Below are positions 20,261 to 34,048 of a stretch of 55,478 nt of DNA, one piece after another. A program made the translations under genes and the position numbers. Origin of the DNA: Actinomycetes bacterium (GTDB taxonomy: Bacteria > Actinomycetota > Actinomycetes > S36-B12); contig JBAXJN010000002.1 of the NCBI GenBank assembly GCA_037137855.1, positions 1 through 55,478 on the forward strand, written 5' to 3'. The number at the start of each line of letters is the position of its first letter. Within the stretch, counting starts at the first letter, position 1. The notes beneath the pieces are model-generated. The model did no database searches. It was not told the origin of the DNA and saw only the letters and a list, made by a program, of their open reading frames with translations.

Positions 20261-20350
20261 CGAGAGCCAAGAACCCCATGGCTTTGTGTGTTTTCCTCGG
20301 GAGACACACCTGATTGGCAGAAGTTTTGCCACCGAAGGAGGGTCGACCAC

Positions 20351-22855
20351 ATGGTCGACAACGAAAACCCAAGCTCAACCACATCCAATCCAGAAACTCC
20401 TGCTCCTCGCACCCGTCGCCGGGCTGCGAGCCGACCCGCTGGTCCACCAGTTGAGGTTGACGAGATCAAGGGCGCCCCTGCGAAAGCGGCCGAAAAGTCA
20501 TCAGTCAAGACTCAGGACCCTGCTGACAAGGCACCTGCTAAGCCAAAGACTGCGCGTCCACCGCGCAAGACCAAGGTTTCTGCTGATCACGCTCACGTCG
20601 AGCAAGAGGTAGTTGCCAAGGATTCTGCACCCAAGGATGCTGCGCCCAAGGAGACAACTGCGAAGCAAGGCGCTCCTAAGAACTCACGCGCACCAATTGC
20701 TGCAGCTTTTGTGGCGCCAGTCTTCATGGCTCCGACCCCGGCTGCAGAACAGATGTCCGAATCAGCTGACGGCAAAGAGACACAAAAGGCCAAACGGCCC
20801 ACGACTCAGCGTCGAGGCAAGGCTGCAGCTGACCAAGAAGTTGGACTTGAAACAGAAACCACCGATACAGATGCGCCGCAAGCCGACGCAGAGGGTGCGG
20901 GCGAGGTTGACGATGACAGCGAAGAAGGCCAGCGCCGTCGGCGTCGTCGTCGCGGTGGCCGCGGACGCCGCAAGCGCACCGGTGAAGGCGAAGACCTGAC
21001 AGAAGATTCTGAGAACGACAATGGTGAAGAAGATTCGTCAGATGTTTCTGAAGACGCTGATGCTGATGTCGATGCCGTTGAGGGCGAAACTGAAGAGCAG
21101 GCTGCATCACGTCGTCGCCGTCGTCGCCGCCGCCGTGGCAATGACGACCTCGAACCATCGGCTGATGATCCACCAAACACTGTGGTCAAAGTTCGCGAGC
21201 CGCGTGCCAAGGGTGAAGACGTTACAACCATGCGTGGCTCGACTCGTTTGGAAGCCAAAAAGCAGCGTCGCCGCGAAGGCCGCGAAGCCGGCCGTCGCCG
21301 TCCACCAATCTTGACTGAATCGGAATTCCTCGCTCGTCGTGAAGCCGTAAATCGAGTGATGGTGGTTCGTCAAAACGGTGATCGCACTCAGATCGCCGTG
21401 TTGGAAGACGGAGTGCTTGTAGAGCATTACGTGACACTTGGATCTTCAGGTTCGCTTGTCGGCAACGTCTATTTGGGCCGTGTGCAAAACGTGCTGCCGA
21501 GCATGGAAGCAGCCTTCGTTGACATTGGTCGCGGCCGCAATGCAGTGCTGTACGCCGGTGAAGTGAACTGGGACGCGGCTGGCTTAGAAGGACAGCCAAA
21601 GCGCATCGAACTTGCCATGAAGTCAGGCGATCCAGTGTTGGTGCAAATCACCAAGGATCCAGTTGGCCAAAAGGGTGCACGGTTGACGAGCCAGATTTCT
21701 TTGCCTGGACGTTTCTTGGTGTACGTGCCAGATGGTTCCATGACAGGTATCAGTCGCAAGCTGCCAGACACTGAGCGATCGCGGCTTAAGTCCATCTTGA
21801 AGCGGGTAATGCCAGAGGAGGCAGGCGTCATTGTTCGTACTGCCGCTGAAGGCGCTCCTGAAGCTGCACTTGAGCAGGATGTAGAGCGACTCAAGGCGCA
21901 ATGGGAAGGCATCAGCACTCGCGCGGTAAATGCAACACCACCAACGTTGTTGTATGGCGAACCTGATCTTGCGATCAAGGTCGTTCGCGACATCTTCAAT
22001 GAAGATGTAAACAAAATGGTTGTCTCTGGCAGTGAGGCCTGGCAGACGGTTCAGGAGTACGTCACTTCTGTTGCGCCTGATCTAGCCGTTCGCCTTGAGC
22101 ATCACGTGGGGAACAGCGATGTTTTTGCGGAATACCGCATCGATGAACAACTCGCTAAAGCTTTGGATCGCAAGGTCTGGTTGCCTTCAGGCGGCTCGCT
22201 TGTGATCGATCGAACTGAAGCGATGACCGTTGTTGACGTCAACACGGGCAAGTTCACTGGTCAAGGTGGAAACCTTGAGCAGACCGTCACAAGCAACAAC
22301 CTTGAAGCTGCTGAAGAGATTGTTCGCCAGCTTCGGTTGCGCGATATCGGTGGAATCATCGTCGTCGACTTCATTGATATGGTTCTTGAAAGCAACCGAG
22401 ATCTTGTGTTGCGTCGCTTGGTTGAATGTCTTGGTCGCGATCGCACGAAGCATCAGGTTGCCGAAGTCACCAGTCTTGGTTTAGTGCAGATGACACGAAA
22501 GCGTATTGGCTCAGGATTGATCGAATCATTTTCAACGAACTGTGAAGCTTGCAATGGTCGCGGCGTCAAGGTGAACATGCATGAGCACGATCATGTGGAA
22601 TCACCGAAGAGTCGTCGGCCAGCAAATGCGGTTGATCCCGCAGATGTTGCTGCTCGTGTATCAGCGTCAATCGGTGATCTTGACACAGTAGATATTGAAG
22701 CCATCGATGCGATTGAAACCTTTGAAGGCATCGAAGACATGGATGCAATCGAAGCCATCCGACTTGAAGCACATCTTGAAGCAGCGCAAGACCGAGCTGA
22801 GTATGAAGTAGTTGCTCATGCGGTTGCTGTTGATAGCGACTCCGCGGACGCTTAA
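20351..22855 (+). CDS. rne: Ribonuclease E (Rne/Rng family) with long disordered N- and C-terminal extensions
   Basis: The S1 and catalytic core carry VGNVYLGRVQNVLPSMEAAFVDIGRGRNAVLY, GGSLVIDRTEAMTVVDVNTG and GGIIVVDFIDM, plus a Zn-link CEACNGRG. The start is re-called to ATG 20351 (GAAGGAGG lies 6 nt upstream) instead of track position 20288. Confidence 0.9.
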   Translation: MVDNENPSSTTSNPETPAPRTRRRAASRPAGPPVEVDEIKGAPAKAAEKSSVKTQDPADKAPAKPKTARPPRKTKVSADHAHVEQEVVAKDSAPKDAAPKETTAKQGAPKNSRAPIAAAFVAPVFMAPTPAAEQMSESADGKETQKAKRPTTQRRGKAAADQEVGLETETTDTDAPQADAEGAGEVDDDSEEGQRRRRRRRGGRGRRKRTGEGEDLTEDSENDNGEEDSSDVSEDADADVDAVEGETEEQAASRRRRRRRRRGNDDLEPSADDPPNTVVKVREPRAKGEDVTTMRGSTRLEAKKQRRREGREAGRRRPPILTESEFLARREAVNRVMVVRQNGDRTQIAVLEDGVLVEHYVTLGSSGSLVGNVYLGRVQNVLPSMEAAFVDIGRGRNAVLYAGEVNWDAAGLEGQPKRIELAMKSGDPVLVQITKDPVGQKGARLTSQISLPGRFLVYVPDGSMTGISRKLPDTERSRLKSILKRVMPEEAGVIVRTAAEGAPEAALEQDVERLKAQWEGISTRAVNATPPTLLYGEPDLAIKVVRDIFNEDVNKMVVSGSEAWQTVQEYVTSVAPDLAVRLEHHVGNSDVFAEYRIDEQLAKALDRKVWLPSGGSLVIDRTEAMTVVDVNTGKFTGQGGNLEQTVTSNNLEAAEEIVRQLRLRDIGGIIVVDFIDMVLESNRDLVLRRLVECLGRDRTKHQVAEVTSLGLVQMTRKRIGSGLIESFSTNCEACNGRGVKVNMHEHDHVESPKSRRPANAVDPADVAARVSASIGDLDTVDIEAIDAIETFEGIEDMDAIEAIRLEAHLEAAQDRAEYEVVAHAVAVDSDSADA

Positions 22856-23233: not shown

Positions 23234-24505
23234 ATGGCAGCTCAAAATAAGGGGCGACGCTCGGTACTTGTCAGCACCCTCAGCATAGGAATCGTGGTGG
23301 GTGCTTCGGCGAGCCTTTCATGGGGAGCACCCACGCCGGCAGTCTCTGCTAAGCCGGTTGTCTGTCCGGCATCGCCTGGAGTCGATAACACGTCGATAAA
23401 TGTCGGTGTCATCACTGCTACCTCGGGGCCATCCTCGTCAAGCTTTACCGGGTTCGTAGAAGGCGCACGGCTACGTTTTGCTCAAGAAAATGCAAAGGGT
23501 GGCGTTTACGGACGAAAGCTCAATGTCACGGTGTACGACGATCAGGGAAGCGGCGCTCAACAATCATCGGTTGCCACCAAAGCCATTCAGCAGGACAACC
23601 AATTCGGAGTCGTCGAAGCGAGCACTATTGACACCATGATGCCTGTCTTCAAGGCTTCCAATGTTCCGGTGGTTGGGTTGACTAACCTGCCCGCACATGG
23701 CACCGACCGAAATGTATTCGGTGCAACTGGTGCCTTTGCACCTCTCTACACAACAACGACTACGGCTCACAAACTTGCGACATCAGGGTCAGTTGCTGTC
23801 GCTGTGGTGAATCACAACTCTCCAGGTGCTCAGGCAGCAGGAGCAGGAATTGTTGCGGCGCTACCTCTTGAGAATCTTCCGTTGGCTCTGAGAATCTCGG
23901 ATGCACCGATCGGTGCCTATGACGCAACTTCGACCGCGCTTCGTATCAAGCAATCTGGTGCAGATTCAGTCGATGCAATTTTGACTTTGGATGGCTCAGT
24001 GTCGCTCATCACCGCATTGGCTCAGCAGGGTGTGAAGTTGAAGGCATTCATGCCAGCAGGACTATCCGATCCGCTCGTTGTCGCTAAGGCTCCGGCTGCT
24101 CTTGAAGGCGCCATTGGGGCAACCTTTGGAACTGTTCCCGCTGGTGTTGCCGGCAGGCCTGGGCTGCGTACCTTTGTGAACGGTATGAAGGTCGCAGGGG
24201 CGAACCCTTATGCAGTTGGTTCACCGATCGGCTTCGTATCGGCAGATACCTTCATTAAGGGTCTGCAACTTGCTGGTAAGTGCCCAACCCGTGAAGGCTT
24301 TGTCAGTAACTTGCGCAAGCAGACGAAAATTACTGGAGCTGGAATGCTCCCTGAACCAATCAGTTATGCACCAGGACTGACACCGAACGGCAATCCTGCT
24401 CGTTGCGGCTGGTATATGACGGTCAAGAATGGCGTTTTCGTTCCGGATGCACAGGCTACTTGCGGCAAATTGGTGGAAGTCGCCACGGGCAAAATTGTTG
24501 GCTAA
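23234..24505 (+). CDS. ABC transporter substrate-binding protein, branched-chain amino acid (LivK/Peripla_BP_6-like) family
   Basis: 423 aa with GGGGAG upstream of the ATG. The signal peptide contains RRS (GRRSVLVSTLSIGIVVGASASLSWG). The body has INVGVITATSGP.. and GGVYGRKLNVTVYDDQG, typical of type I LIV-binding proteins. No permease or ATPase gene is adjacent. Confidence 0.78.
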   Translation: MAAQNKGRRSVLVSTLSIGIVVGASASLSWGAPTPAVSAKPVVCPASPGVDNTSINVGVITATSGPSSSSFTGFVEGARLRFAQENAKGGVYGRKLNVTVYDDQGSGAQQSSVATKAIQQDNQFGVVEASTIDTMMPVFKASNVPVVGLTNLPAHGTDRNVFGATGAFAPLYTTTTTAHKLATSGSVAVAVVNHNSPGAQAAGAGIVAALPLENLPLALRISDAPIGAYDATSTALRIKQSGADSVDAILTLDGSVSLITALAQQGVKLKAFMPAGLSDPLVVAKAPAALEGAIGATFGTVPAGVAGRPGLRTFVNGMKVAGANPYAVGSPIGFVSADTFIKGLQLAGKCPTREGFVSNLRKQTKITGAGMLPEPISYAPGLTPNGNPARCGWYMTVKNGVFVPDAQATCGKLVEVATGKIVG

Positions 24506-24518
24506 CACTTCAATAACT

Positions 24519-24556
24519 AGTGGGGTGGTCAGTGCTTTTGCATTGACCACCCCACT
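24519..24556. terminator. Bidirectional hairpin terminator between convergent genes
   Basis: A 13-bp perfect stem, agtggggtggtca / tgaccaccccact, encloses a 12-nt loop. tgtttg follows on the plus strand. Confidence 0.6.
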
Positions 24557-24581
24557 TGTTTGAGGCTGAAAACATTGCTGG

Positions 24582-25055
24582 TTATTCAGCGACGACGCCC
24601 ATCGCCAGGAGGTAGCGACCGGCCATGGCATAAAAGCCAACAAGTAGAGCCATATCTGAGATTTCCTGCGGTGACCAATGCTTAGTCGTCGCAAGCCAGA
24701 GTTCATCTGTGGTCGTCACGCTGTCGGCAGCCTCGCAAAAGTTGAGCGCGGCTGTTTCAGACGCGCTGAAAGCCTTGAAGTCTGTAGATTTAAGCGCCTG
24801 TAGTTCCTGGGCAGTTACTCCGGCCTTAAGGGCCACTGGCTCATGTAATTGGGATTGATAAGTAGAACCGACTCGGTACAAGGTACGCAAGACAAGAATC
24901 TCTCGTGTGCGATCTGAAAGGCGCGAAGTGGAATGCACTCGTCCGGAAAGACTCGCAAACCCTTTAAACATCTCCGGATTGTTGTACACAGCACGCACAA
25001 TTCGGTTGTCAGTCATCATTTCGGCAGGGAGTTCAGCTTCAGGCAGTCGCTGCAT
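24582..25055 (-). CDS. Carboxymuconolactone decarboxylase (AhpD-like) family protein
   Basis: 157 aa. The helical core RTREILVLRTLYRVGSTYQSQLHEPVALKAGVTAQELQAL is typical of the CMD family. There is no CxxC motif, so it is not an AhpD-type peroxidase component. Confidence 0.7.
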   Translation of the reverse strand: MQRLPEAELPAEMMTDNRIVRAVYNNPEMFKGFASLSGRVHSTSRLSDRTREILVLRTLYRVGSTYQSQLHEPVALKAGVTAQELQALKSTDFKAFSASETAALNFCEAADSVTTTDELWLATTKHWSPQEISDMALLVGFYAMAGRYLLAMGVVAE

Positions 25056-25082
25056 GAGAGTCCTTAGTGTTGTGAAGTGATG

Positions 25083-26024
25083 TTAAGCGAGTGCTGCGAT
25101 GAGTGGACCTAGTTCCCAAGCAAGTGGCTCACTCACAGTGAAATAGGTGATTCCATTTTGATTGTTGATAGCTTGAACATGCTCGACAAGTTCGGCGGTA
25201 TTACCAATCAGCCCAAAGGGCGACTCGAGTAACTCATCAGTAGTGAGCCCACCCGCTACAGGCATTCCGGTGGGCCCAAGCGCACGTGCAGCAGTTTCGG
25301 CGCGACTCTCACCTTCTGTGCCTACGGCTCCGAACAGCACCCGAACACCAATAGTGAGATCATCGCGCTCGTAGCCACCGGCATCGCGAATCCAAGATAG
25401 TTGGTCATTGAAAGCCGACTTTCGAGTATCAGCAGTGCCAGACATCTGCGTCAAAATACTGATGATTTGCGCATTCTTCGCGGCGTAGCTCAACATTCGT
25501 TTGCCACCGCCACCAAGCATGATTGGAAATGGATTCTGAACTGGTTTTGGAACTGAGGTGAAGTCGTGGATGGAGTAGTACTCACCGTCAAAATTCACAG
25601 GTTCACCAGTAAAGAGTTGACGAAGGACTGTGATGCTTTCAAACAATCTGCTGACACGCGTTCCAGGTGGATCCCAAGTGGCTATGCCGGTTTTGGTGAG
25701 ATCTTCTTCAAGCCAACCTGCGCCTATCCCCATATCAACTCGACCTTTCGACATGATGTCAAGGGTTGCTATCTCTTTTGCCAAGATAGTTGGATTGCGA
25801 AAGTCGTTATTCAACACAGTTATTGCTAGGCGAATGCGCTCCGTAACCATCGCGGCTGACGCCAGTGCGACGATGGGTGCCAGTTGCGGCAGGCTCGGCC
25901 CCAGGTGGTCAGGAACAGAAATCGAATAGAAGCCCAGGGCTTCAGCGCGTTGTGCTTTTGCAACCCAACTATCCACATCAGGGGTGAATGGCATTTGAAT
26001 TGAAAATTTGAATTGTGGGCTCAA
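25083..26024 (-). CDS. Luciferase-like monooxygenase (LLM) family oxidoreductase, possibly F420-dependent
   Basis: 313 aa. It has a TIM-barrel LLM pattern (AEALGFYSISVPDHL, GRVDMGIGAGW, IMLGGGGKRML). The TTG start at 26024 is preceded by GGAGGGG and overlaps the upstream SDR stop (TTGA). Confidence 0.75.
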   Translation of the reverse strand: MSPQFKFSIQMPFTPDVDSWVAKAQRAEALGFYSISVPDHLGPSLPQLAPIVALASAAMVTERIRLAITVLNNDFRNPTILAKEIATLDIMSKGRVDMGIGAGWLEEDLTKTGIATWDPPGTRVSRLFESITVLRQLFTGEPVNFDGEYYSIHDFTSVPKPVQNPFPIMLGGGGKRMLSYAAKNAQIISILTQMSGTADTRKSAFNDQLSWIRDAGGYERDDLTIGVRVLFGAVGTEGESRAETAARALGPTGMPVAGGLTTDELLESPFGLIGNTAELVEHVQAINNQNGITYFTVSEPLAWELGPLIAALA

Positions 26025-26764
26025 CTTGTTGCCCCTCCATCCACATAGAGCGTTTGGCCAGTGGTGTAACTCGCTCCATCGGAGCAGAAATAGGCCATCG
26101 CTTCGTACTGTTCTCGGCTTGTGCCGAAGCGCTTAATTGGATTGCTTCCAGTGATTTGGTCAGCGTTCGCGAGTTGACTGCCGGCCGCTTCAAAGGCGCT
26201 AATACCTGGTGCGATGCAATTGACGGTGATACCAAAATCACCGACTTCACGAGCCATGCCACGGGTCATATCTTCAACGGTTGACTTGGTCAAACCGTAT
26301 GAATTGCCTCCGCTCTTTGCGGCCATTGAAGACACGTTCACAACTCTGCCCCAAGAGTTAGCCTTCATGGCAGGAATCGCGGCTCTCGTTGCGCGCAAGG
26401 TTCCGGTGACGTTGACAGCCCAAGCTATGTCCCAAATGTCGTCGGGACAATCGAGGAGCCCGGCCTCGGCTAGTCCGCGCCAAAGCCCAGCATTGTTGAT
26501 GAGAATGTCCAAACGGCCAAACTCTTGCACTGTGGCTTTGACAAGTGCCTCAACAGAGGCTGCTGAAGTCACATCACACTCCACACCTATGCACTTGGGT
26601 CCCAGCGCACTGGCTTCTTGAGCGGCGCTGGAGGTGTCTTTCACGTCTGCAACCACGACATGGCAGCCGTCCATTGCAAAGTATCGGGAATAGTCACGCC
26701 CCAACCCACGTGCTGCACCCGTAACAATAACGACCTTGCCAGACAGGCGGTTCGTATTTTCCAT
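26021..26764 (-). CDS. SDR family oxidoreductase
   Basis: 247 aa. It carries the SDR motifs TGAARGLG (TGxxxGxG), NNAG and the catalytic S..YGLTK (YxxxK). Confidence 0.9.
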   Translation of the reverse strand: MENTNRLSGKVVIVTGAARGLGRDYSRYFAMDGCHVVVADVKDTSSAAQEASALGPKCIGVECDVTSAASVEALVKATVQEFGRLDILINNAGLWRGLAEAGLLDCPDDIWDIAWAVNVTGTLRATRAAIPAMKANSWGRVVNVSSMAAKSGGNSYGLTKSTVEDMTRGMAREVGDFGITVNCIAPGISAFEAAGSQLANADQITGSNPIKRFGTSREQYEAMAYFCSDGASYTTGQTLYVDGGATS

Positions 26765-26920
26765 AGGTGAAGTATTCGAGATACCGCTCGGGTGAGAAGC
26801 GAAATTGGAGAAAATTTAGAATAACTTGAAGAAGTTCTGTCGATAGAGATGACACACAGAGGGATTTTGTTCACCGAACCAACAAAAGTCTCCGCGGCGC
26901 ACTGTTTATCCGAGATGAAT

Positions 26921-27556
26921 TTAGTCTGTTCTGCGCACGATTCTGATGATCTCGTAATTGACGAGCTCAATGAGGGCTTCACGGCTGTTTTCAGGCTCAG
27001 GGACTCCATAGATGAAGTGATAACTCACCCAACGTCCGACGAGATTAAATAGCAATCTGAGTGACTGTATTGGGGTTGCTACTGAAGTCACCCAACCGCG
27101 TGCTGCCCATTCTTTCAATACCTGATCAGCAACCTTGTCTAGCTTCTCTAGGGACGCTCCAATGGAATCAGAAACGATTGGCCCTGAGTGAATCCATGCT
27201 GATTGTCGACTCAATGCGTTCTCAAATTGCGTGAGCCACTCAGCAATATCATTTTTGCATCCCGGTTGGGCGTGCTGGATTGCCGCTGAAGCCCTAAGGA
27301 GTTCCAAGGCGTAGCGCTCTCCAATGGCATGAGCGATATCTGCTTTACCGTGAAAATGCTTGTACACCGTGGTGCGTCCCACGTTTGCGCACTTAGCAAT
27401 TTCATCAATGGTGGCGGCTGCGAAGCCGCGGTTGGAGAAGACAGCGATAGAGGTTTCGATCAGCCTGTCGCGCGTGAGTTCTTTCTGAGCTTCGCGAATA
27501 GAAATTGGCCGATCTTCTGAGTAAGCGTGATGTTGTTCCTGAACTGCGGTACTCAT
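26921..27556 (-). CDS. TetR/AcrR family transcriptional regulator
   Basis: The HTH reads FSNRGFAAATIDEIAKCANVGRTTVYKHFHGK. The start is re-called to ATG 27556 (GGAGGGAG upstream) rather than 27574. It is divergent from the CoA-transferase operon. Confidence 0.85.
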   Translation of the reverse strand: MSTAVQEQHHAYSEDRPISIREAQKELTRDRLIETSIAVFSNRGFAAATIDEIAKCANVGRTTVYKHFHGKADIAHAIGERYALELLRASAAIQHAQPGCKNDIAEWLTQFENALSRQSAWIHSGPIVSDSIGASLEKLDKVADQVLKEWAARGWVTSVATPIQSLRLLFNLVGRWVSYHFIYGVPEPENSREALIELVNYEIIRIVRRTD

Positions 27557-27866
27557 CTGCGCTACTCCCTCCAAGATGCAATCTCAGTATTTGTCCGCCT
27601 GACGCATCAAAGCACAGAAATCCCAGTGATGTGTTGGCTTTCATGACTCCACCGTGACTGCTGATGCAGTGATTGCACTTCGGGGCGATTTCCTATTTTC
27701 TCAGCGACTTTTGTTCTAAATGTGAGCATTTGACGCAGCCTTCTGTGGCCAGCGTCGCGCTGTCGTGTCCAAAATCTTTATTTATTACGACAAACCTCGC
27801 AGAACCCATCACATTACGAGCCTGCTTGTGAGAGATTCACGAGAAATCAATTCCAGGGAGTGTGTG

Positions 27867-30341
27867 ATGAGCGGACCGTTAGCAGGGCTTCGAGTATTGG
27901 AATTGGGCGAGAGCCTGGCAATTGCTCAGGCGGGCAACTTGTTTGCGGATTACGGCGCTGAGGTTGTCATGGTCGAACCGCCAAGCGGAGTCCCGCTGAG
28001 GCAGGTTCCTGGTTTCGCATTTTTTGGCCGAGGGAAGAAGAGCGTTGTTCTTGATTGTCGCCAAGAAGAGCAAGCGCAGCGCTGCCTGAAATTGATGGCT
28101 GACGTTGACGTCGTGCTTACCTCTGTTCGGCCTGCAACTCTTGCCCGCTGGGGACTCGACTATGAATCAGTTGCTCGAGTTAATCCCCGCGTAGTATTCG
28201 GGCAAGTCACCGCATGGGGACTCAAGGGACCGCTAGCCACATCAAAGGGCACAGAAGCCTTGGTGATGGCCAAGATAGGCGGCAACTTCTCGCCTCAGCG
28301 TGTTGTGGATCGCAGCGGTCCAATCTTCACAACAGTCCCATTCGCAAGTTGGAGTGCAGGTCAGACTCTGCTTCAAGGTGTTTTCGCCGCACTTCGTGAA
28401 AGAGAATCAAGTGGCCTTGGGCAGATGGTGGATTCGAGCCTTGCTCACAGTGTTGGTGCCCAAGACCCGTGGACGCAGGCAATCGGTGTCATAGCCGAAC
28501 GCTTCCCTGATGCGTTCACCCCGACCGGGCAGACATCTAATGATGGTGCGCCAAATACCAGTTTCCTTTTCAAGTTACTTGTCGCAATCACGAAGGATGG
28601 TCACTGGCTACAGTTCGCAGAGGTACAACCGCGACTCTTTCGGTCCTTCATGACGTCATGCGGGTTGGACTGGATGTATGAAGATCCAGAGTGGTCGGAG
28701 TTCATGAAAGTAGCCACGGAAACCGTGACACTTCCTGAGTCGGCGAATTCTGCAAAGAGGTTCGAATTCTGGAACCTGCTACTCGACATTGTGCGCAGTA
28801 AAACGTTGGCTGAATGGCGCGAAGCCTTCGATATTGATCCCAACGTATTCGCGGAGGTCTTTCGACGTGGCACGGATCTCCTTCATCACCCGCAAATGGA
28901 GGTTGAACGTCAGATCGTCACCATTGAAGACCGTGACCTTGGTCCCGTTCTTCAACCAGCGGCACTTGTGAGATTCGAAACCACTCCCGCTGAACTTGGC
29001 GTTGATGCTCCGCGTTTAGGTGAGCACCAGGATGAAGTTGTAAAGAGAGCGGAGAAGGTTGTCATTGCGGACGTGCATGTGGAGGCGCGAAGCAAGCCCG
29101 GACTTCCATTAGCTGGGCTCACGATTCTTGAACTCGGTACTTTCTATGCCGCGCCTTTTGGGGCAACGATCTTGACTGACCTTGGCGCACGCGTCATCAA
29201 GATTGAAACTCTTGAAGGTGATCCAATGCGAACTCAACAAGCCTTCCCCGAGGCGGGCGCCATGAAGGTGCTTCAGGGAAAGCAATCAGTGGCCTTGGAC
29301 CTGGCAACCCAAGAATGCCACGACATTCTTGAAGCGATGGCTCCGTCAATCGACTTAGTCTTGTGTGCATTTCGCATGGGCGTAGCTGATCGTCTCGGTG
29401 TTGGGACTGAAGACTTTCGTCGGATGAATCCCCGGATCATGTATCTCGAGGCTCCGGGCTTTGGTATTAAAGCTCCATATGGCAACCGACCAGCATTCGC
29501 TCCAGTTATCGGCGCGGGCAGCGGCATTGCAATGCGCAATGTCGGTCGATTAATTCCCGAAGGAGTGCCAGAAGACTTCGATGTGATTCGGGCGTTAGGT
29601 GGCAAACTCACTGCCGGCGGAGGTAATGCGGCAGCGCAAGCAGACGGAGTTGCGGCACTTGGAGTAGGAACTGCACTGAGTTTTGCTGCATATTTGCAGG
29701 AAATCGGAGTACCCGGGCAGTCGATGCTCACGACAATGCTTCAATCCTGCGCTCACCTTTTAGGTGAAGACATGGTCGAATATCGAGATCGCCCAGATGC
29801 TCCGACAGCAGACATAGACCTATATGGACTGAGCGCTCTATACCGCCTATATCAAGCAACTGATGACAGCTGGGTGTTTCTCAGCGCACCGAAGGCGAGT
29901 GAATGGAACCGGCTCGTTTCGGCACTTGACGCGGAAACTTCAATCAATAGTGACGCCCGATTCGCCACTCCTGAACTGCGTGTAAAACATGACAGCGAGC
30001 TGGCTGTCATCTTGGGCGAGATTTTTCGTACACGTTCAGCTGCAAGTTGGGAGTCTGCACTATTGGCTCAAGACATTGGATGTGTTGAAGTAAATACGAT
30101 GCCTCCCAATCGTGTCTTCATGACCGAACTTGCAGAAAAGCACGGCTGGATCGCGACGGCAGACAGTCCTGTGATTGGTGAATATCCACGGCAACGTGCC
30201 TACGCTGGATTTTCGCGTTCCACGACTATTAACCCAGCAGGATGCGCGCTAGGGCAGCACACTGCTGAAGTTGTGCGGGAATTCGGATTTTCAGATGAGT
30301 ACATCAAAGACCTTGTAACACGTGGAATTGCAAAGGTTTAG
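27867..30341 (+). CDS. Tandem-fused family III CoA-transferase (two CaiB/BaiF/Frc-like modules in one polypeptide)
   Basis: The N-terminal family signature occurs twice: PLAGLRVLELGES...ADYGAEVVMVEPPSG from nt 27876 and PLAGLTILELGTFYAAPFGATILTDLGARVIKIETLEGDPMR from nt 29106. The start is re-called to ATG 27867 (AGGGAG upstream) rather than 27765. Confidence 0.85.
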   Translation: MSGPLAGLRVLELGESLAIAQAGNLFADYGAEVVMVEPPSGVPLRQVPGFAFFGRGKKSVVLDCRQEEQAQRCLKLMADVDVVLTSVRPATLARWGLDYESVARVNPRVVFGQVTAWGLKGPLATSKGTEALVMAKIGGNFSPQRVVDRSGPIFTTVPFASWSAGQTLLQGVFAALRERESSGLGQMVDSSLAHSVGAQDPWTQAIGVIAERFPDAFTPTGQTSNDGAPNTSFLFKLLVAITKDGHWLQFAEVQPRLFRSFMTSCGLDWMYEDPEWSEFMKVATETVTLPESANSAKRFEFWNLLLDIVRSKTLAEWREAFDIDPNVFAEVFRRGTDLLHHPQMEVERQIVTIEDRDLGPVLQPAALVRFETTPAELGVDAPRLGEHQDEVVKRAEKVVIADVHVEARSKPGLPLAGLTILELGTFYAAPFGATILTDLGARVIKIETLEGDPMRTQQAFPEAGAMKVLQGKQSVALDLATQECHDILEAMAPSIDLVLCAFRMGVADRLGVGTEDFRRMNPRIMYLEAPGFGIKAPYGNRPAFAPVIGAGSGIAMRNVGRLIPEGVPEDFDVIRALGGKLTAGGGNAAAQADGVAALGVGTALSFAAYLQEIGVPGQSMLTTMLQSCAHLLGEDMVEYRDRPDAPTADIDLYGLSALYRLYQATDDSWVFLSAPKASEWNRLVSALDAETSINSDARFATPELRVKHDSELAVILGEIFRTRSAASWESALLAQDIGCVEVNTMPPNRVFMTELAEKHGWIATADSPVIGEYPRQRAYAGFSRSTTINPAGCALGQHTAEVVREFGFSDEYIKDLVTRGIAKV

Positions 30342-30366
30342 TCAAATTATCGTCGGGGGACAACGT

Positions 30367-31170
30367 ATGGGCGCGGTTGAAGGCAAAGTTGCAATTGTTA
30401 CGGGCGCAGCCAGCGGCATTGGTCGTGGTGCAGCGCTTGCTCTAGCAAGTCGGGGCGCACGTGTGGTTGTTGCCGACCTAAATATTGATGGGGCGCAAGC
30501 CGTAGTTCGAGAGATTGAGTCTGCACAAGGCACTGCGATTGCCATTCGGGTAGATGTCGGAGACGACCAAGCACTTGAAGATCTCAAGGCCGAAGTGCTC
30601 ACAGCGTTTGGTCGGGTAGACATCGTTATGAACAATGCGGGTGTTATCACTCGAGGGTTACCTGAACATATACCGATTGAAGAGTGGCACCGAGTTATCA
30701 ATGTCAATCTATTTTCTGTCGTTCGAAGCCATGCAGCGTTTCTTCCACTTTTTCTTGAGCAAGGTTCGGGCCACTTCGTGAACACTGCCTCGTTCGCTGG
30801 TCTCATGAGTTATTCCTACGACCGACTGCCGTATGCGGCTTCGAAAGCGGCAATTATTCAGATTTCAGAAGGTTTGGCTTTGTATGCAATTCCCAAGGGG
30901 ATTGGAGTAACCGTGCTTTGCCCGGGCCCGGTAGCAACAAATATCGGAGTGGGCATCCCATCTTTCGGCCCAGAAACGACAACTCGAGGCCCTGGATCTC
31001 AATTTGGGGTTCGAGATCCATTGGAAGTAGGGCACGAAGTCGTAGATGCCATTGAAGCCAACACATTCATGCTCACTACAGACGATCAAATTCGTGAGAT
31101 TCTCGTTTCTAGAGCCCGTGATTGGGATGGATATGTGCATAATCAAATTCTCGCAATGAACTCGCAATGA
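30367..31170 (+). CDS. SDR family oxidoreductase
   Basis: It carries GKVAIVTGAASGIGRGAA, NNAGV and the catalytic YAASKAAI. The start is re-called to ATG 30367 because track position 30322 overlaps the CoA-transferase gene. Confidence 0.9.
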   Translation: MGAVEGKVAIVTGAASGIGRGAALALASRGARVVVADLNIDGAQAVVREIESAQGTAIAIRVDVGDDQALEDLKAEVLTAFGRVDIVMNNAGVITRGLPEHIPIEEWHRVINVNLFSVVRSHAAFLPLFLEQGSGHFVNTASFAGLMSYSYDRLPYAASKAAIIQISEGLALYAIPKGIGVTVLCPGPVATNIGVGIPSFGPETTTRGPGSQFGVRDPLEVGHEVVDAIEANTFMLTTDDQIREILVSRARDWDGYVHNQILAMNSQ

Positions 31171-31222
31171 AGTAGTTGAGAGTTGCTAATTTTATCTGCT
31201 GAATATTAAGGGAGCCACGGAC

Positions 31223-32392
31223 ATGGAAGTAGCTGGCAAGATCTGGGCGAACTCAGGTGATTCGCATATCAATGAACCGCCAGATCTCTTCGACGGCTTA
31301 CCCGAGCATCTCAAGGGTTTAATGCCGCGCAGTGTCAAAGATCCAAGCGGTGCATTTGAAACGATCTATGTAGATGGTCAGTCTTTCGAGCGTGCCATGC
31401 CACAGTTAAAGCCGGACGCAGACGGAAAAATTCCCGCAGGCCGCCGACCCTCAGCAATGCCCATAGGTACAGATGTAGACGAAATGATTGAACGCATGAC
31501 GATGGCAAACGATGCCGAACATCGACTTGCTGATTGTGACGATGAAGGTGTTTGGGCTGAGGTGATTTACCCGTCGCTGGGATCGTGGGCCGCAAATATT
31601 CGCACGCCTGAATTGGCGAAAGCTGGCGCGCGAATTCACAATGAATTCGCTTTGGATTTTCAACGTCGGTCTCCTCGCTTTGTGCTCGCTGCTTCAATTC
31701 CGTTGCTTGACATGCAGGACACCGTTGCTGAAATCAAGCGGGCATCGGCCGATGGGTTCCTTGGCGGATTCATCCCTGCCCTGCCACCTTTTGGTCGACC
31801 AGATTGGAACAACGAAGAGTGGGATCCGATGTGGGATGCGTTTGCCGAAACGGGCATGCGAATCTGTATGCATATCGGCACCGAACCGATTGACCCAACT
31901 CAGAGTCAAGGACTGTATTACCGCGGCAGAGGCGGTGCGATCATGAACTACGTAGAAACAACCTTTGGTGGCCAACGTGCCGCGGTCAAATTAATCGCGT
32001 GTGGTGCCTTAGATAAGCGACCAGAATTGAAAATGCTGATCTCTGAGAGTGGCGCCACGTGGGGGCCTTTCATTGCTGACCGAATGACTGAGGCCTATCG
32101 CCAACACTCAGCTGGAGTGCGTCCAACGCTAGGCCGGGAACCTGCCCAGATTTTGTATGAACAGGTGTATGCCTCTTTCCAGCACGACATGTCTGCCGTG
32201 CAGGCATGTGTAGCAATGGGTTGGCAGAACGTCATGTGGGGATCTGATTACCCGCACTACGAAGGCACCTTTGGGCATACTCAAGACACTCTGCATCAAC
32301 TCTTTGACGGTGTTGACACCGCAGCGAGTGAGCGAATTCGCATTGGGGCTTTTCACGAGTTGTTCCCATCAGTTCCGCTTCCTCCTGTCTAG
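31223..32392 (+). CDS. Amidohydrolase_2 family metal-dependent hydrolase (ACMSD/LigW/LigI-like decarboxylase, hydratase or lactonase)
   Basis: 389 aa with AAGGGAG upstream. The C-terminal signature VMWGSDYPHYEG, an internal ICMHIG and an N-terminal GDSHINEP metal-site region are all present. Confidence 0.75.
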   Translation: MEVAGKIWANSGDSHINEPPDLFDGLPEHLKGLMPRSVKDPSGAFETIYVDGQSFERAMPQLKPDADGKIPAGRRPSAMPIGTDVDEMIERMTMANDAEHRLADCDDEGVWAEVIYPSLGSWAANIRTPELAKAGARIHNEFALDFQRRSPRFVLAASIPLLDMQDTVAEIKRASADGFLGGFIPALPPFGRPDWNNEEWDPMWDAFAETGMRICMHIGTEPIDPTQSQGLYYRGRGGAIMNYVETTFGGQRAAVKLIACGALDKRPELKMLISESGATWGPFIADRMTEAYRQHSAGVRPTLGREPAQILYEQVYASFQHDMSAVQACVAMGWQNVMWGSDYPHYEGTFGHTQDTLHQLFDGVDTAASERIRIGAFHELFPSVPLPPV

Positions 32393-32526
32393 TCCGCATA
32401 TATGTGTCCGGTGAGTTCCTTTCGCTTATTTGGAAATATGGGGGCACACAAGATTTGAGGCACACGCGATCTAAGGTGAGTGGTGTTTGGAATTGATCGG
32501 GTCTGAAGAGAATTGGTGACGGCGTA

Positions 32527-33273
32527 ATGAACTCAGAAGTAGCCGAATTGCTCGTAAGCGATGTCAATGGCGTCCGCGTACTTTCACTGAACCGACCACA
32601 TCGACTGAATGCGTTTACCTCCGAGGCTTATTTCGAGCTCGCCCGAGAACTGACGCTTGCAGCGTCAGATAGTTCAGTTCAGGTTGTGCTGCTCAAGGGG
32701 GAAGGCCGGGCCTATTGCGCCGGCGTTGATCTCTTTGCGCTTGGTGAAGCAACGGGCGACGAATTTAGTCGGGGGATTAAAGCTGTGGTTCTAGCCCTGG
32801 CAACATTCCCGAAACCAATCATCGCAGCAGTACACGGCGCAATCATTGGCTTTGGTGCCACGATGTTGTTGCACGTTGACATCGTGATCACCGCAGACGA
32901 TGCCAGATGGCGCTTCCCGTTTTCCGAACTCGGTACCGCTCCTGAAGCCGGGAGTTCGTTCATGCTCCAAAAAATTGTGGGCGAGCGAAGGGCAGCCGAA
33001 TTACTCCTGACTTCGCGCTGGGTCAGTGGATCTGAGGCAGCTGAGCTCGGATTGGCAACAGATTCCGTACCAGCAGATCAGGTGCACCGGATGGGCCAGC
33101 TTGTGGCCGAGAAGCTCACCGCCATGAAAGGGCCGGCTATGGTGGGGGCAAAGGCGCTCTTGAGGCGCGGGTGGGCCCAAGAAATCGCCGAGGCGATCGA
33201 TCGAGAAAGCCAAGTTGCCGGTGAAATTGGCCGGGCTATTGGGGGATCTGGTATCGCTTGGGGTGCGGAGTAG
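32527..33273 (+). CDS. Enoyl-CoA hydratase/isomerase (crotonase) family protein
   Basis: 248 aa. Crotonase motifs are present: VRVLSLNRPHRLNAF, GEGRAYCAGVDL and KPIIAAVHGAIIGFGATMLLHVDIV. Confidence 0.9.
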   Translation: MNSEVAELLVSDVNGVRVLSLNRPHRLNAFTSEAYFELARELTLAASDSSVQVVLLKGEGRAYCAGVDLFALGEATGDEFSRGIKAVVLALATFPKPIIAAVHGAIIGFGATMLLHVDIVITADDARWRFPFSELGTAPEAGSSFMLQKIVGERRAAELLLTSRWVSGSEAAELGLATDSVPADQVHRMGQLVAEKLTAMKGPAMVGAKALLRRGWAQEIAEAIDRESQVAGEIGRAIGGSGIAWGAE

Positions 33274-33971: not shown

Positions 33972-33997
33972 TTCCGCACTCATAGCAGCACATCTTC

Positions 33998-34048
33998 AAA
34001 CGAGGCGAGCTACAGCTCGCCTCGTTTGTCTTTGGTCCTACAGGACCA
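33998..34048 (+). terminator. Terminator/attenuator hairpin pair between rpmA and obg
   Basis: A 12-bp stem aaacgaggcgag / ctcgcctcgttt is followed by gtcttt. A second 6-bp hairpin tggtcc-taca-ggacca lies at 34033-34048. Confidence 0.65.

Follow-up and report, generated by a model that had tools for sequence, protein, structure and literature searches.

A two-domain family III CoA-transferase with a predicted single aspartate site, encoded beside a PtmU3-like oxygenase in an actinobacterial operon

Only two members of the large class of two-domain family III coenzyme A (CoA) transferases, DddD and PtmU4, have been studied. DddD has been known since 2007; it contains two CaiB domains (PMC7174347) and requires a catalytic Asp (PMC4437653). 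For PtmU4, Dong et al. (2018; PMC6006322) described a conserved Asp in the C-terminal domain of two-domain class III CoA-transferases, and the D430A/E/N variants had activities reduced 125- to 400-fold; the enzyme was monomeric by size exclusion, and the two-domain class was widespread in Actinobacteria (PMC6006322). Here we analyzed a gene of this architecture in a 55,478-nucleotide (nt) stretch of DNA from an Actinomycetes bacterium (assembly GCA_037137855.1, contig JBAXJN010000002.1), called the window below. An earlier interpretation of the window, made from the letters alone (the sequence-only reading), had named no characterised example of the fused architecture. Because it was already described for PtmU4 (PMC6006322) and DddD (PMC7174347, PMC4437653), the architecture is known, though thinly studied.

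The product of this gene consists of two diverged CaiB/BaiF-type protomers joined by a linker of ~13 residues. We consider it likely that they form a pseudo-dimer, that the protein has one active site, at Asp593, and that it performs the acid-activating step of its operon. As predicted from the alignments, the sole canonical active site belongs to the C-terminal module, the reverse of what had first been proposed. The protein is a known kind of enzyme. The sequence-only reading was right about the fusion and the asymmetry and wrong about the active module, the Glu-based catalysis, and the novelty; its correction is the main value of the present analysis.

Nucleophile position and fold of the fused protein

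The fused gene has the following features in the window.

27867..30341, + strand: two-domain (tandem) class III CoA-transferase gene, 824 amino acids (aa) plus stop (Pfam, homologue lengths, AlphaFold2, Foldseek)
27867..29060, + strand: module 1 (about aa 1-398), a complete family III protomer predicted to lack the nucleophile (PDB similarity, conservation)
28254..28256, + strand: codon of Glu130 (GAA), equivalent to Frc Glu140 (alignments by MAFFT and hidden Markov model [HMM])
28347..28349, + strand: codon of Ser161, nucleophile position of module 1 (MAFFT and HMM alignments)
29061..29099, + strand: inter-module linker (about aa 399-411, ~13 residues), with no secondary structure at 397-418 in the model and a poorly conserved consensus
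29100..30338, + strand: module 2 (about aa 412-824), the predicted catalytic family III protomer (PDB matches, profile HMM)
29499..29501, + strand: codon of Ala545 (GCT), G-x-D position of module 2 (alignment column)
29535..29636, + strand: insertion specific to module 2, ~34 aa (aa 557-590), two helices, directly before D593 (alignment gap, model)
29643..29645, + strand: codon of Asp593 (GAC), predicted catalytic nucleophile (MAFFT and three HMM alignments, invariance)

We used E. coli CaiB, Frc (YfdW), and YfdE, taken from the K-12 genome, as references; residue 169 is Asp in both CaiB (TADYFSG) and Frc (LGDSNTG). In a MAFFT alignment of these three proteins with 31 N-terminal and 31 C-terminal modules, the nucleophilic Asp (CaiB D169, Frc D169, YfdE D173) aligned to S161 (FASWSAG) in module 1 and to D593 (QADGVAA) in module 2. 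The profile HMM of module 2 placed D593 at the nucleophile position against each of the three references, and that of module 1 placed the reference Asp on residues 160-162. A PDB alignment concurred, with 'mtDivaG' of Brucella Frc opposite 'faSwsaG' of module 1. Conservation was then counted in 119 sequences, that is, 118 full-length homologues and the window protein. D593 was invariant (119/119). Position 161 was S in 89 sequences, A in 18, T in 9, C in 2, and G in 1, but never D or E, and positions 160 and 162 were likewise never acidic. Since D593 is invariant and position 161 is never acidic, module 2 is predicted to be the catalytic module and module 1 to lack a nucleophile. A conserved Asp in both halves, which the sequence-only reading had named as a finding that would speak against it, was not seen, as module 1 has S161 at this position.

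That reading had taken a G-x-D motif for the catalytic segment, with Glu130 as the catalytic residue of module 1 and Ala545 in the corresponding place of module 2. Both residues are indeed encoded at the codons it quoted. However, the G-x-D position varies among the references (E140 in Frc, N141 in CaiB, and D144 in YfdE), and the nucleophile D169/D173 lies ~29 residues further downstream. Because Frc carries Glu140 together with Asp169, there is no ground to see a substitute nucleophile in a Glu at the G-x-D position. Column 130 was E in 113, D in 5, and N in 1 of the 119 sequences, and column 545 was A in 118. The notion of an asymmetric enzyme with at most one active site therefore survives in part: the modules are non-equivalent and have a single canonical site between them, but the alignments place this site in module 2 (D593) and not in module 1 (S161).

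A broader sample comprised 21 diverse two-domain proteins from the loci of a genome scan with the family alignment and of gene-context look-ups; the window subfamily consists of closer relatives. The genome scan returned mostly distant single-domain relatives and was of little use for synteny. The 21 proteins belonged to Chloroflexota, Actinomycetota, delta-proteobacterial, clostridial (Oscillospiraceae/Lachnospiraceae), Spirochaetaceae, and other lineages. The C-terminal module had the Asp in 21/21, the N-terminal module was without it in 17/21, and the position of Frc E140 was acidic in the N-terminal module of 19/21. We observed a complementary pattern in these proteins: N-terminal modules usually keep the acid at the E140 position and lose the nucleophile, and C-terminal modules keep the Asp and in most cases show Ala or Gly in place of that acid. 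The sequence-only reading had caught one half of this pattern. We also take Rv1866 to be a fused mycobacterial homologue; a literature search on it gave nothing usable.

The frame from 27867 to 30341 (+) is uninterrupted and encodes 824 aa. Pfam detected CoA_transf_3 (PF02515) in two stretches of it, with 401.8 bits in total versus a gathering cut-off of 23.3, which supports a fusion of two family III modules. The PLAGL signature occurs twice, from nt 27876 (P4) and from nt 29106 (P414), as had been noted before. The two modules were 33% identical over the first 124 residues only (E = 3e-17), and since their similarity is confined to this part, the duplication must be old. The 118 full-length homologues had lengths of 780-860 aa and identities of 44-90%, and came mainly from Actinomycetota or unlabelled metagenome contigs. 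A 98%-identical copy of the fused gene was present in an independent metagenome-assembled genome (MAG; locus L003). We conclude from the many same-length homologues and this independent copy that the fusion is real; an assembly or frameshift artefact that would have joined two ordinary genes, a caveat of the sequence-only reading, was ruled out on the same grounds. The list of open reading frames (ORFs) also gave an earlier GTG at 27765 as the start of the gene. ATG 27867 is favoured because it is preceded by a GGGAG ribosome-binding site and because the homologues have the same MSGPL beginning and the same length.

The AlphaFold2 model (65 sequences) had a mean predicted local distance difference test score (pLDDT) of 93.5 and a predicted template modelling score (pTM) of 0.94, and showed one compact body with no disordered segment. 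Such a pTM for an 824-residue two-module chain indicates that the halves are packed rigidly in a defined way. In the model, S161 and D593 each lie at the N-terminal end of a long helix of their module (159-182 and 592-612, respectively), which fits with their being equivalent positions. The 34-aa insertion, which has no counterpart in CaiB, Frc, YfdE, or module 1 in the MAFFT alignment, is modelled with helices at 554-562 and 571-584. Foldseek matched the model to single protomers of Frc, SUGCT, YfdW, BbsEF, CaiB, Rv3272, and MCR with template modelling (TM) scores of 0.74-0.85 when normalised to the target and ~0.4 when normalised to the query (E = 1e-17 to 1e-21 against Frc, SUGCT, YfdW, CaiB, Rv3272, and MCR); the query-normalised score of ~0.4 means that each match spans one half. 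The best PDB matches of module 2 were Frc-like enzymes, Rv3272, and SUGCT, and its profile HMM aligned YfdE over the full length. Three points, the protein fold, the pTM value, and the finding that PtmU4 is a monomer, suggest an interlocked topology within one chain; the two modules would most likely fold as the intramolecular equivalent of the interlocked homodimer of Frc, CaiB, and YfdE.

Module 1 is not decaying and is conserved as strongly as module 2, with 30 invariant columns versus 34. It keeps the R45, R55-G-K-x-S59, and R88 motifs; Arg and R-G-K-x-S motifs are shared by the two modules and the reference enzymes. Its closest PDB matches were the MCR/Far racemases (E = 1e-30 to 1e-24). 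The catalytic pair of MCR is H126 and D156. In the alignment with Far (2g04), 'GHD' stood opposite 'GTE' and 'ADFGGG' opposite 'PFASWS' of module 1. We rejected an alpha-methylacyl-CoA racemase identity for module 1 because both catalytic residues are absent, the His/Asp pair being replaced by T129 and A160/S161. Module 1 would instead be an obligatory structural partner whose small domain forms a lid on the Asp593 site; a candidate for this cover is the loop at residues 224-230 (S-N-D-G-A-P-N), which corresponds to the Frc glycine loop. Binding of a CoA ester to module 1 may persist, though not for canonical catalysis.

The operon and its PtmU3-like oxygenase

The genes that accompany the CoA-transferase gene are as follows.

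26921..27574, - strand: TetR-family regulator, divergent, presumed repressor (Pfam TetR_N, E = 4.7e-12)
30367..31170, + strand: short-chain dehydrogenase/reductase (SDR) oxidoreductase, probably of the 3-hydroxyacyl-CoA dehydrogenase type (Pfam adh_short; top PDB match (3R)-hydroxyacyl-CoA dehydrogenase, E = 1.7e-36)
31223..32392, + strand: PtmU3-like amidohydrolase-related dinuclear oxygenase (ARO) (PDB 6omp, signature motifs)
32527..33273, + strand: crotonase-family protein (enoyl-CoA hydratase/isomerase), last gene of the block (Pfam ECH_1, E = 1.5e-41; PDB EchA8_6, E = 2e-40)

The product of 31223-32392 is filed by Pfam as Amidohydro_2, and it matched PtmU3 (PDB 6omp) from end to end with ~50% identity (E = 3.1e-91). 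Both signature motifs of the AROs (PMC13154177) were present, as D13-S-H15 and D342-Y-P-H-Y-E347, and the latter closes with Glu, as in the variant found in PtmU3. That enzyme, a di-iron beta-hydroxylase, takes CoA-ligated diterpenoid substrates (PMC7782822). The second PDB match was DitZ, which hydroxylates a diterpenoid acid (PMC13154177). These relationships predict that the ARO of the window hydroxylates a C-H bond of an acyl-CoA with a di-iron centre and is neither a hydrolase nor a decarboxylase.

ARO homologues with 47-98% identity occurred at most 8 kb from a member of the CoA-transferase subfamily in six loci (L003, L007, L087, L089, L091, and L092), and the DSH and DYPHxE motifs were present in those checked (L089, L091, and L092). 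The remaining 85 fetched loci had no ARO homologue; most of these loci encode family III relatives of a more distant kind. Related loci also have a second two-domain paralogue, DUF2889 proteins, pairs of thiolase-like and DUF35 proteins, SDRs, and crotonases. On a further contig (L005 and L006, respectively), the MAGs of L004 and L003 each encode another two-domain paralogue, with 55-56% identity; these MAGs, the closest genomes, are assigned to freshwater Nanopelagicales or Actinobacteria.

The CoA-transferase gene is the first of its operon and the TetR gene is divergent from it, as the sequence-only reading had seen, and this arrangement recurs at a 78%-identical orthologue (L089). For the SDR gene, ATG 30367 is a more likely start than the overlapping GTG 30322 of the ORF list: it follows a GGGGGA ribosome-binding site at a distance of 25 nt from the stop of the CoA-transferase gene, and the orthologous SDR of L089 (265 aa) also starts 25 nt past the stop. 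No terminator was found inside the operon in a scan of 26.7-34.1 kb; promoter matches in the scan were fewer than in shuffled sequence, and the scan as a whole was uninformative. Since an inverted-repeat search of 27560-27870 found no palindrome in the 292-bp intergenic region that could be a TetR operator, the divergent regulator is only presumed to control expression of the operon.

The operon belongs to a catabolic block of ~10 kb (23234-33273), which lies between the gene for RNase E (20288-22855) and those for L27, Obg, ProB, and ProA. The block contains genes for a solute-binding protein, a CMD-family protein, an F420-dependent LLM oxidoreductase (TIGR03621), and an SDR, the TetR gene, and the CoA-transferase operon; the region around it is otherwise of housekeeping type (ValRS, MreB/C, PBP2, RodA, LeuRS). 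Base composition gave no signal of foreign DNA in the block. A strong hairpin of 14 pairs, including 9 G-C pairs, resembles a terminator and was found at 33997-34028 (+), directly after the L27 gene and before obg. The CoA-transferase is the only CoA-activating enzyme in the operon. Neither an acyl-CoA ligase nor an acyl-CoA dehydrogenase was found among the assigned ORFs of 23.2-33.3 kb, and no AMP-binding protein among the ORFs of 23.2-37.9 kb.

The operon context points to catabolism of an alicyclic or branched acid via CoA esters. In the proposed pathway, the CoA-transferase would use a thioester donor to attach CoA to an imported carboxylic acid of probably alicyclic or branched structure. 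By analogy with Frc, the Asp593 site would do so through Asp-acyl anhydride and Asp-CoA thioester intermediates. The PtmU3-like di-iron oxygenase would then hydroxylate the acyl-CoA, so that no acyl-CoA dehydrogenase would be required. The alcohol formed in this step would be oxidised by the SDR, and the product passed to the crotonase-fold enzyme for processing; elsewhere, this last step may fall to a thiolase/DUF35 pair of the genome concerned. The single guide to the substrate class, namely the relationship of the ARO to PtmU3 and DitZ, suggests an alicyclic or branched, terpenoid-like acid. At least 119 proteins, most of them from Actinomycetota or from metagenome contigs without a label, make up the CoA-transferase subfamily, which is repeatedly linked to PtmU3-like di-iron oxygenases, a family so far known mainly from diterpenoid biosynthesis and degradation. 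This link is a testable lead to a pathway and a substrate class in abundant freshwater actinobacteria.

Alternative explanations

Several points weigh against the proposal of an acid-activating transferase with one Asp593 site in an interlocked chain. Plain transferase chemistry is not guaranteed, as DddD is a transferase and lyase and PtmU4 a sulfur transferase. NCBIfam gave the fused protein only sub-threshold matches to named transferases, so no substrate or CoA donor is pointed to, and the neighbouring products likewise received only generic or sub-threshold names. Foldseek of the PDB copy returned no two-domain family III structure for comparison, all matches covering half of the query; we infer both the interlocking and the part that module 1 would have in the Asp593 site. 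Moreover, gene neighbourhoods vary, and the subfamily loci L090 and L093 have no ARO within 7-9 kb.

The non-canonical behaviour of both studied two-domain enzymes, DddD and PtmU4, raises the question of whether the Asp593 site performs derived acyl-CoA chemistry, either DddD-like transfer and elimination or PtmU4-like acyl transfer to another nucleophile to give a thioacid. The family-specific 34-aa insertion beside the nucleophile of module 2 would fit such a role, and a 47%-identical homologue from Pseudonocardia kunmingensis (P0081) has the UniRef name 'Dimethylsulfoniopropionate cleavage enzyme DddD'. This name is an automatic label, however, and given the different gene context here it looks over-propagated. 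Neighbours of the dimethylsulfoniopropionate type (LysR regulator, BCCT transporter) are missing, and there is no PtmA3-like acyl-CoA synthetase within two genes. PtmU4 is also a protein of ~600 aa with a reduced N-terminal domain, versus 824 aa here. Furthermore, if the Asp593 site did not activate the acid, no other enzyme of the operon would make the acyl-CoA that the PtmU3-like oxygenase should need. Derived chemistry thus appears unlikely to us, and we prefer CoA transfer at Asp593.

A broader idea, which we would give a similarly small chance, is that module 1 has a second functional CoA-ester site, a pocket of Glu130, Ser161, and Trp162 that holds or epimerises the acyl-CoA or hands it to the hydroxylase, and that the CoA-transferase and the ARO together constitute an oxygenase-dependent bypass of beta-oxidation. 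If so, this would be an undescribed bypass that needs no acyl-CoA dehydrogenase and through which Actinobacteria of freshwater and soil would process carboxylic acids with alicyclic or quaternary-carbon structures. Its gene set would consist of the two-domain CoA-transferase and the ARO, SDR, and crotonase, and elsewhere of the thiolase/DUF35 and DUF2889 proteins.

A strictly bifunctional enzyme, in which the module 1 pocket (Tyr/Thr129, Glu130, Ser161, Trp162) is a second catalytic or channelling site, for example an MCR-like epimerase/isomerase with Glu130 as the base, seems less probable still. Module 1 is most like the MCR/Far racemases, purifying selection on it is as strong as on module 2, and its CoA-binding motifs and E130 are kept. 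But both MCR catalytic residues are gone (the Far His is T129, and the Asp is A160/S161), and a structural role in completing the Asp593 site can explain the conservation. Finally, the model of the sequence-only reading, in which the only active site is in module 1 with Glu130 in place of Asp and module 2 (Ala545) is dead but CoA-binding, is hardly credible in spite of the conservation of E130 (113 E and 5 D), the acid at the E140 position in 19 of the 21 diverse N-terminal modules, and the CoA-binding motifs kept by module 1: the alignments already contradict it, since the G-x-D position is not that of the nucleophile (Frc has E140 in addition to D169, and CaiB has Asn) and the actual nucleophile position is S161 in module 1 versus the invariant D593 in module 2, and PtmU4 needs its C-terminal Asp for activity.

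Comparison with known systems

The window protein shares with PtmU4 the arrangement of two tandem family III domains in one chain and the conserved Asp in the C-terminal domain (PMC6006322); its own tandem domains are most alike at their N-termini and are connected by a poorly conserved linker. The two differ in size, as PtmU4 has ~600 aa (619 with tag) and a reduced N-terminal domain (PMC6006322), whereas both modules of the 824-aa protein are full-sized. A PtmA3-like acyl-CoA synthetase within two genes is the hallmark of the PtmU4 thioacid cassette (PMC6006322). PtmU4 works with this adjacent synthetase and makes a thioacid; in contrast, no AMP-binding ORF was found at 23.2-37.9 kb of the window, where the CoA-transferase gene has no ligase neighbour and stands in a catabolic context. 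On the other hand, it lies two genes upstream of a gene for a close PtmU3 homologue. Judging by the name alone, we take it that ptmU3 may neighbour ptmU4.

DddD of Marinomonas and others is closer in size, with ~820-840 aa and two full CaiB-like domains (1-416 and 439-821, PMC7174347), and it needs a catalytic Asp (PMC4437653), as predicted for the window protein. However, ddd loci contain a LysR regulator, a BCCT transporter, and 3-hydroxypropionate genes (PMC7174347), none of which is present at the window locus, where the neighbours are TetR, SDR, ARO, and crotonase genes. The organism from which the window comes appears to be a Nanopelagicales-like freshwater actinobacterium. It is the gene context that sets the window protein apart from DddD.

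Each half of the window protein has the same fold as the single-domain enzymes Frc/YfdW, YfdE, CaiB, SUGCT, and Rv3272 (target-normalised TM 0.74-0.85), and module 2 shares with them the nucleophilic Asp and its spacing to the G-x-G-Q motif. These enzymes are symmetric interlocked dimers with two identical sites, whereas the window protein has one chain, one Asp, and a 34-aa insertion before this Asp. The MCR/Far racemases are the best sequence matches of module 1 but differ from it in their His/Asp pair.

The BbsEF enzyme, a succinyl-CoA:(R)-benzylsuccinate CoA-transferase (PDB 9fn0, 9fol), consists of two different family III subunits and may be regarded as the non-fused counterpart of the pseudo-heterodimer proposed here. 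Its subunits are separate polypeptides and belong to an anaerobic pathway, and the entry title names a D178-CoA adduct. SDR, crotonase, and thiolase/DUF35-type enzymes also occur together in the bbs pathway, as they do in the gene sets near homologues of the window gene.

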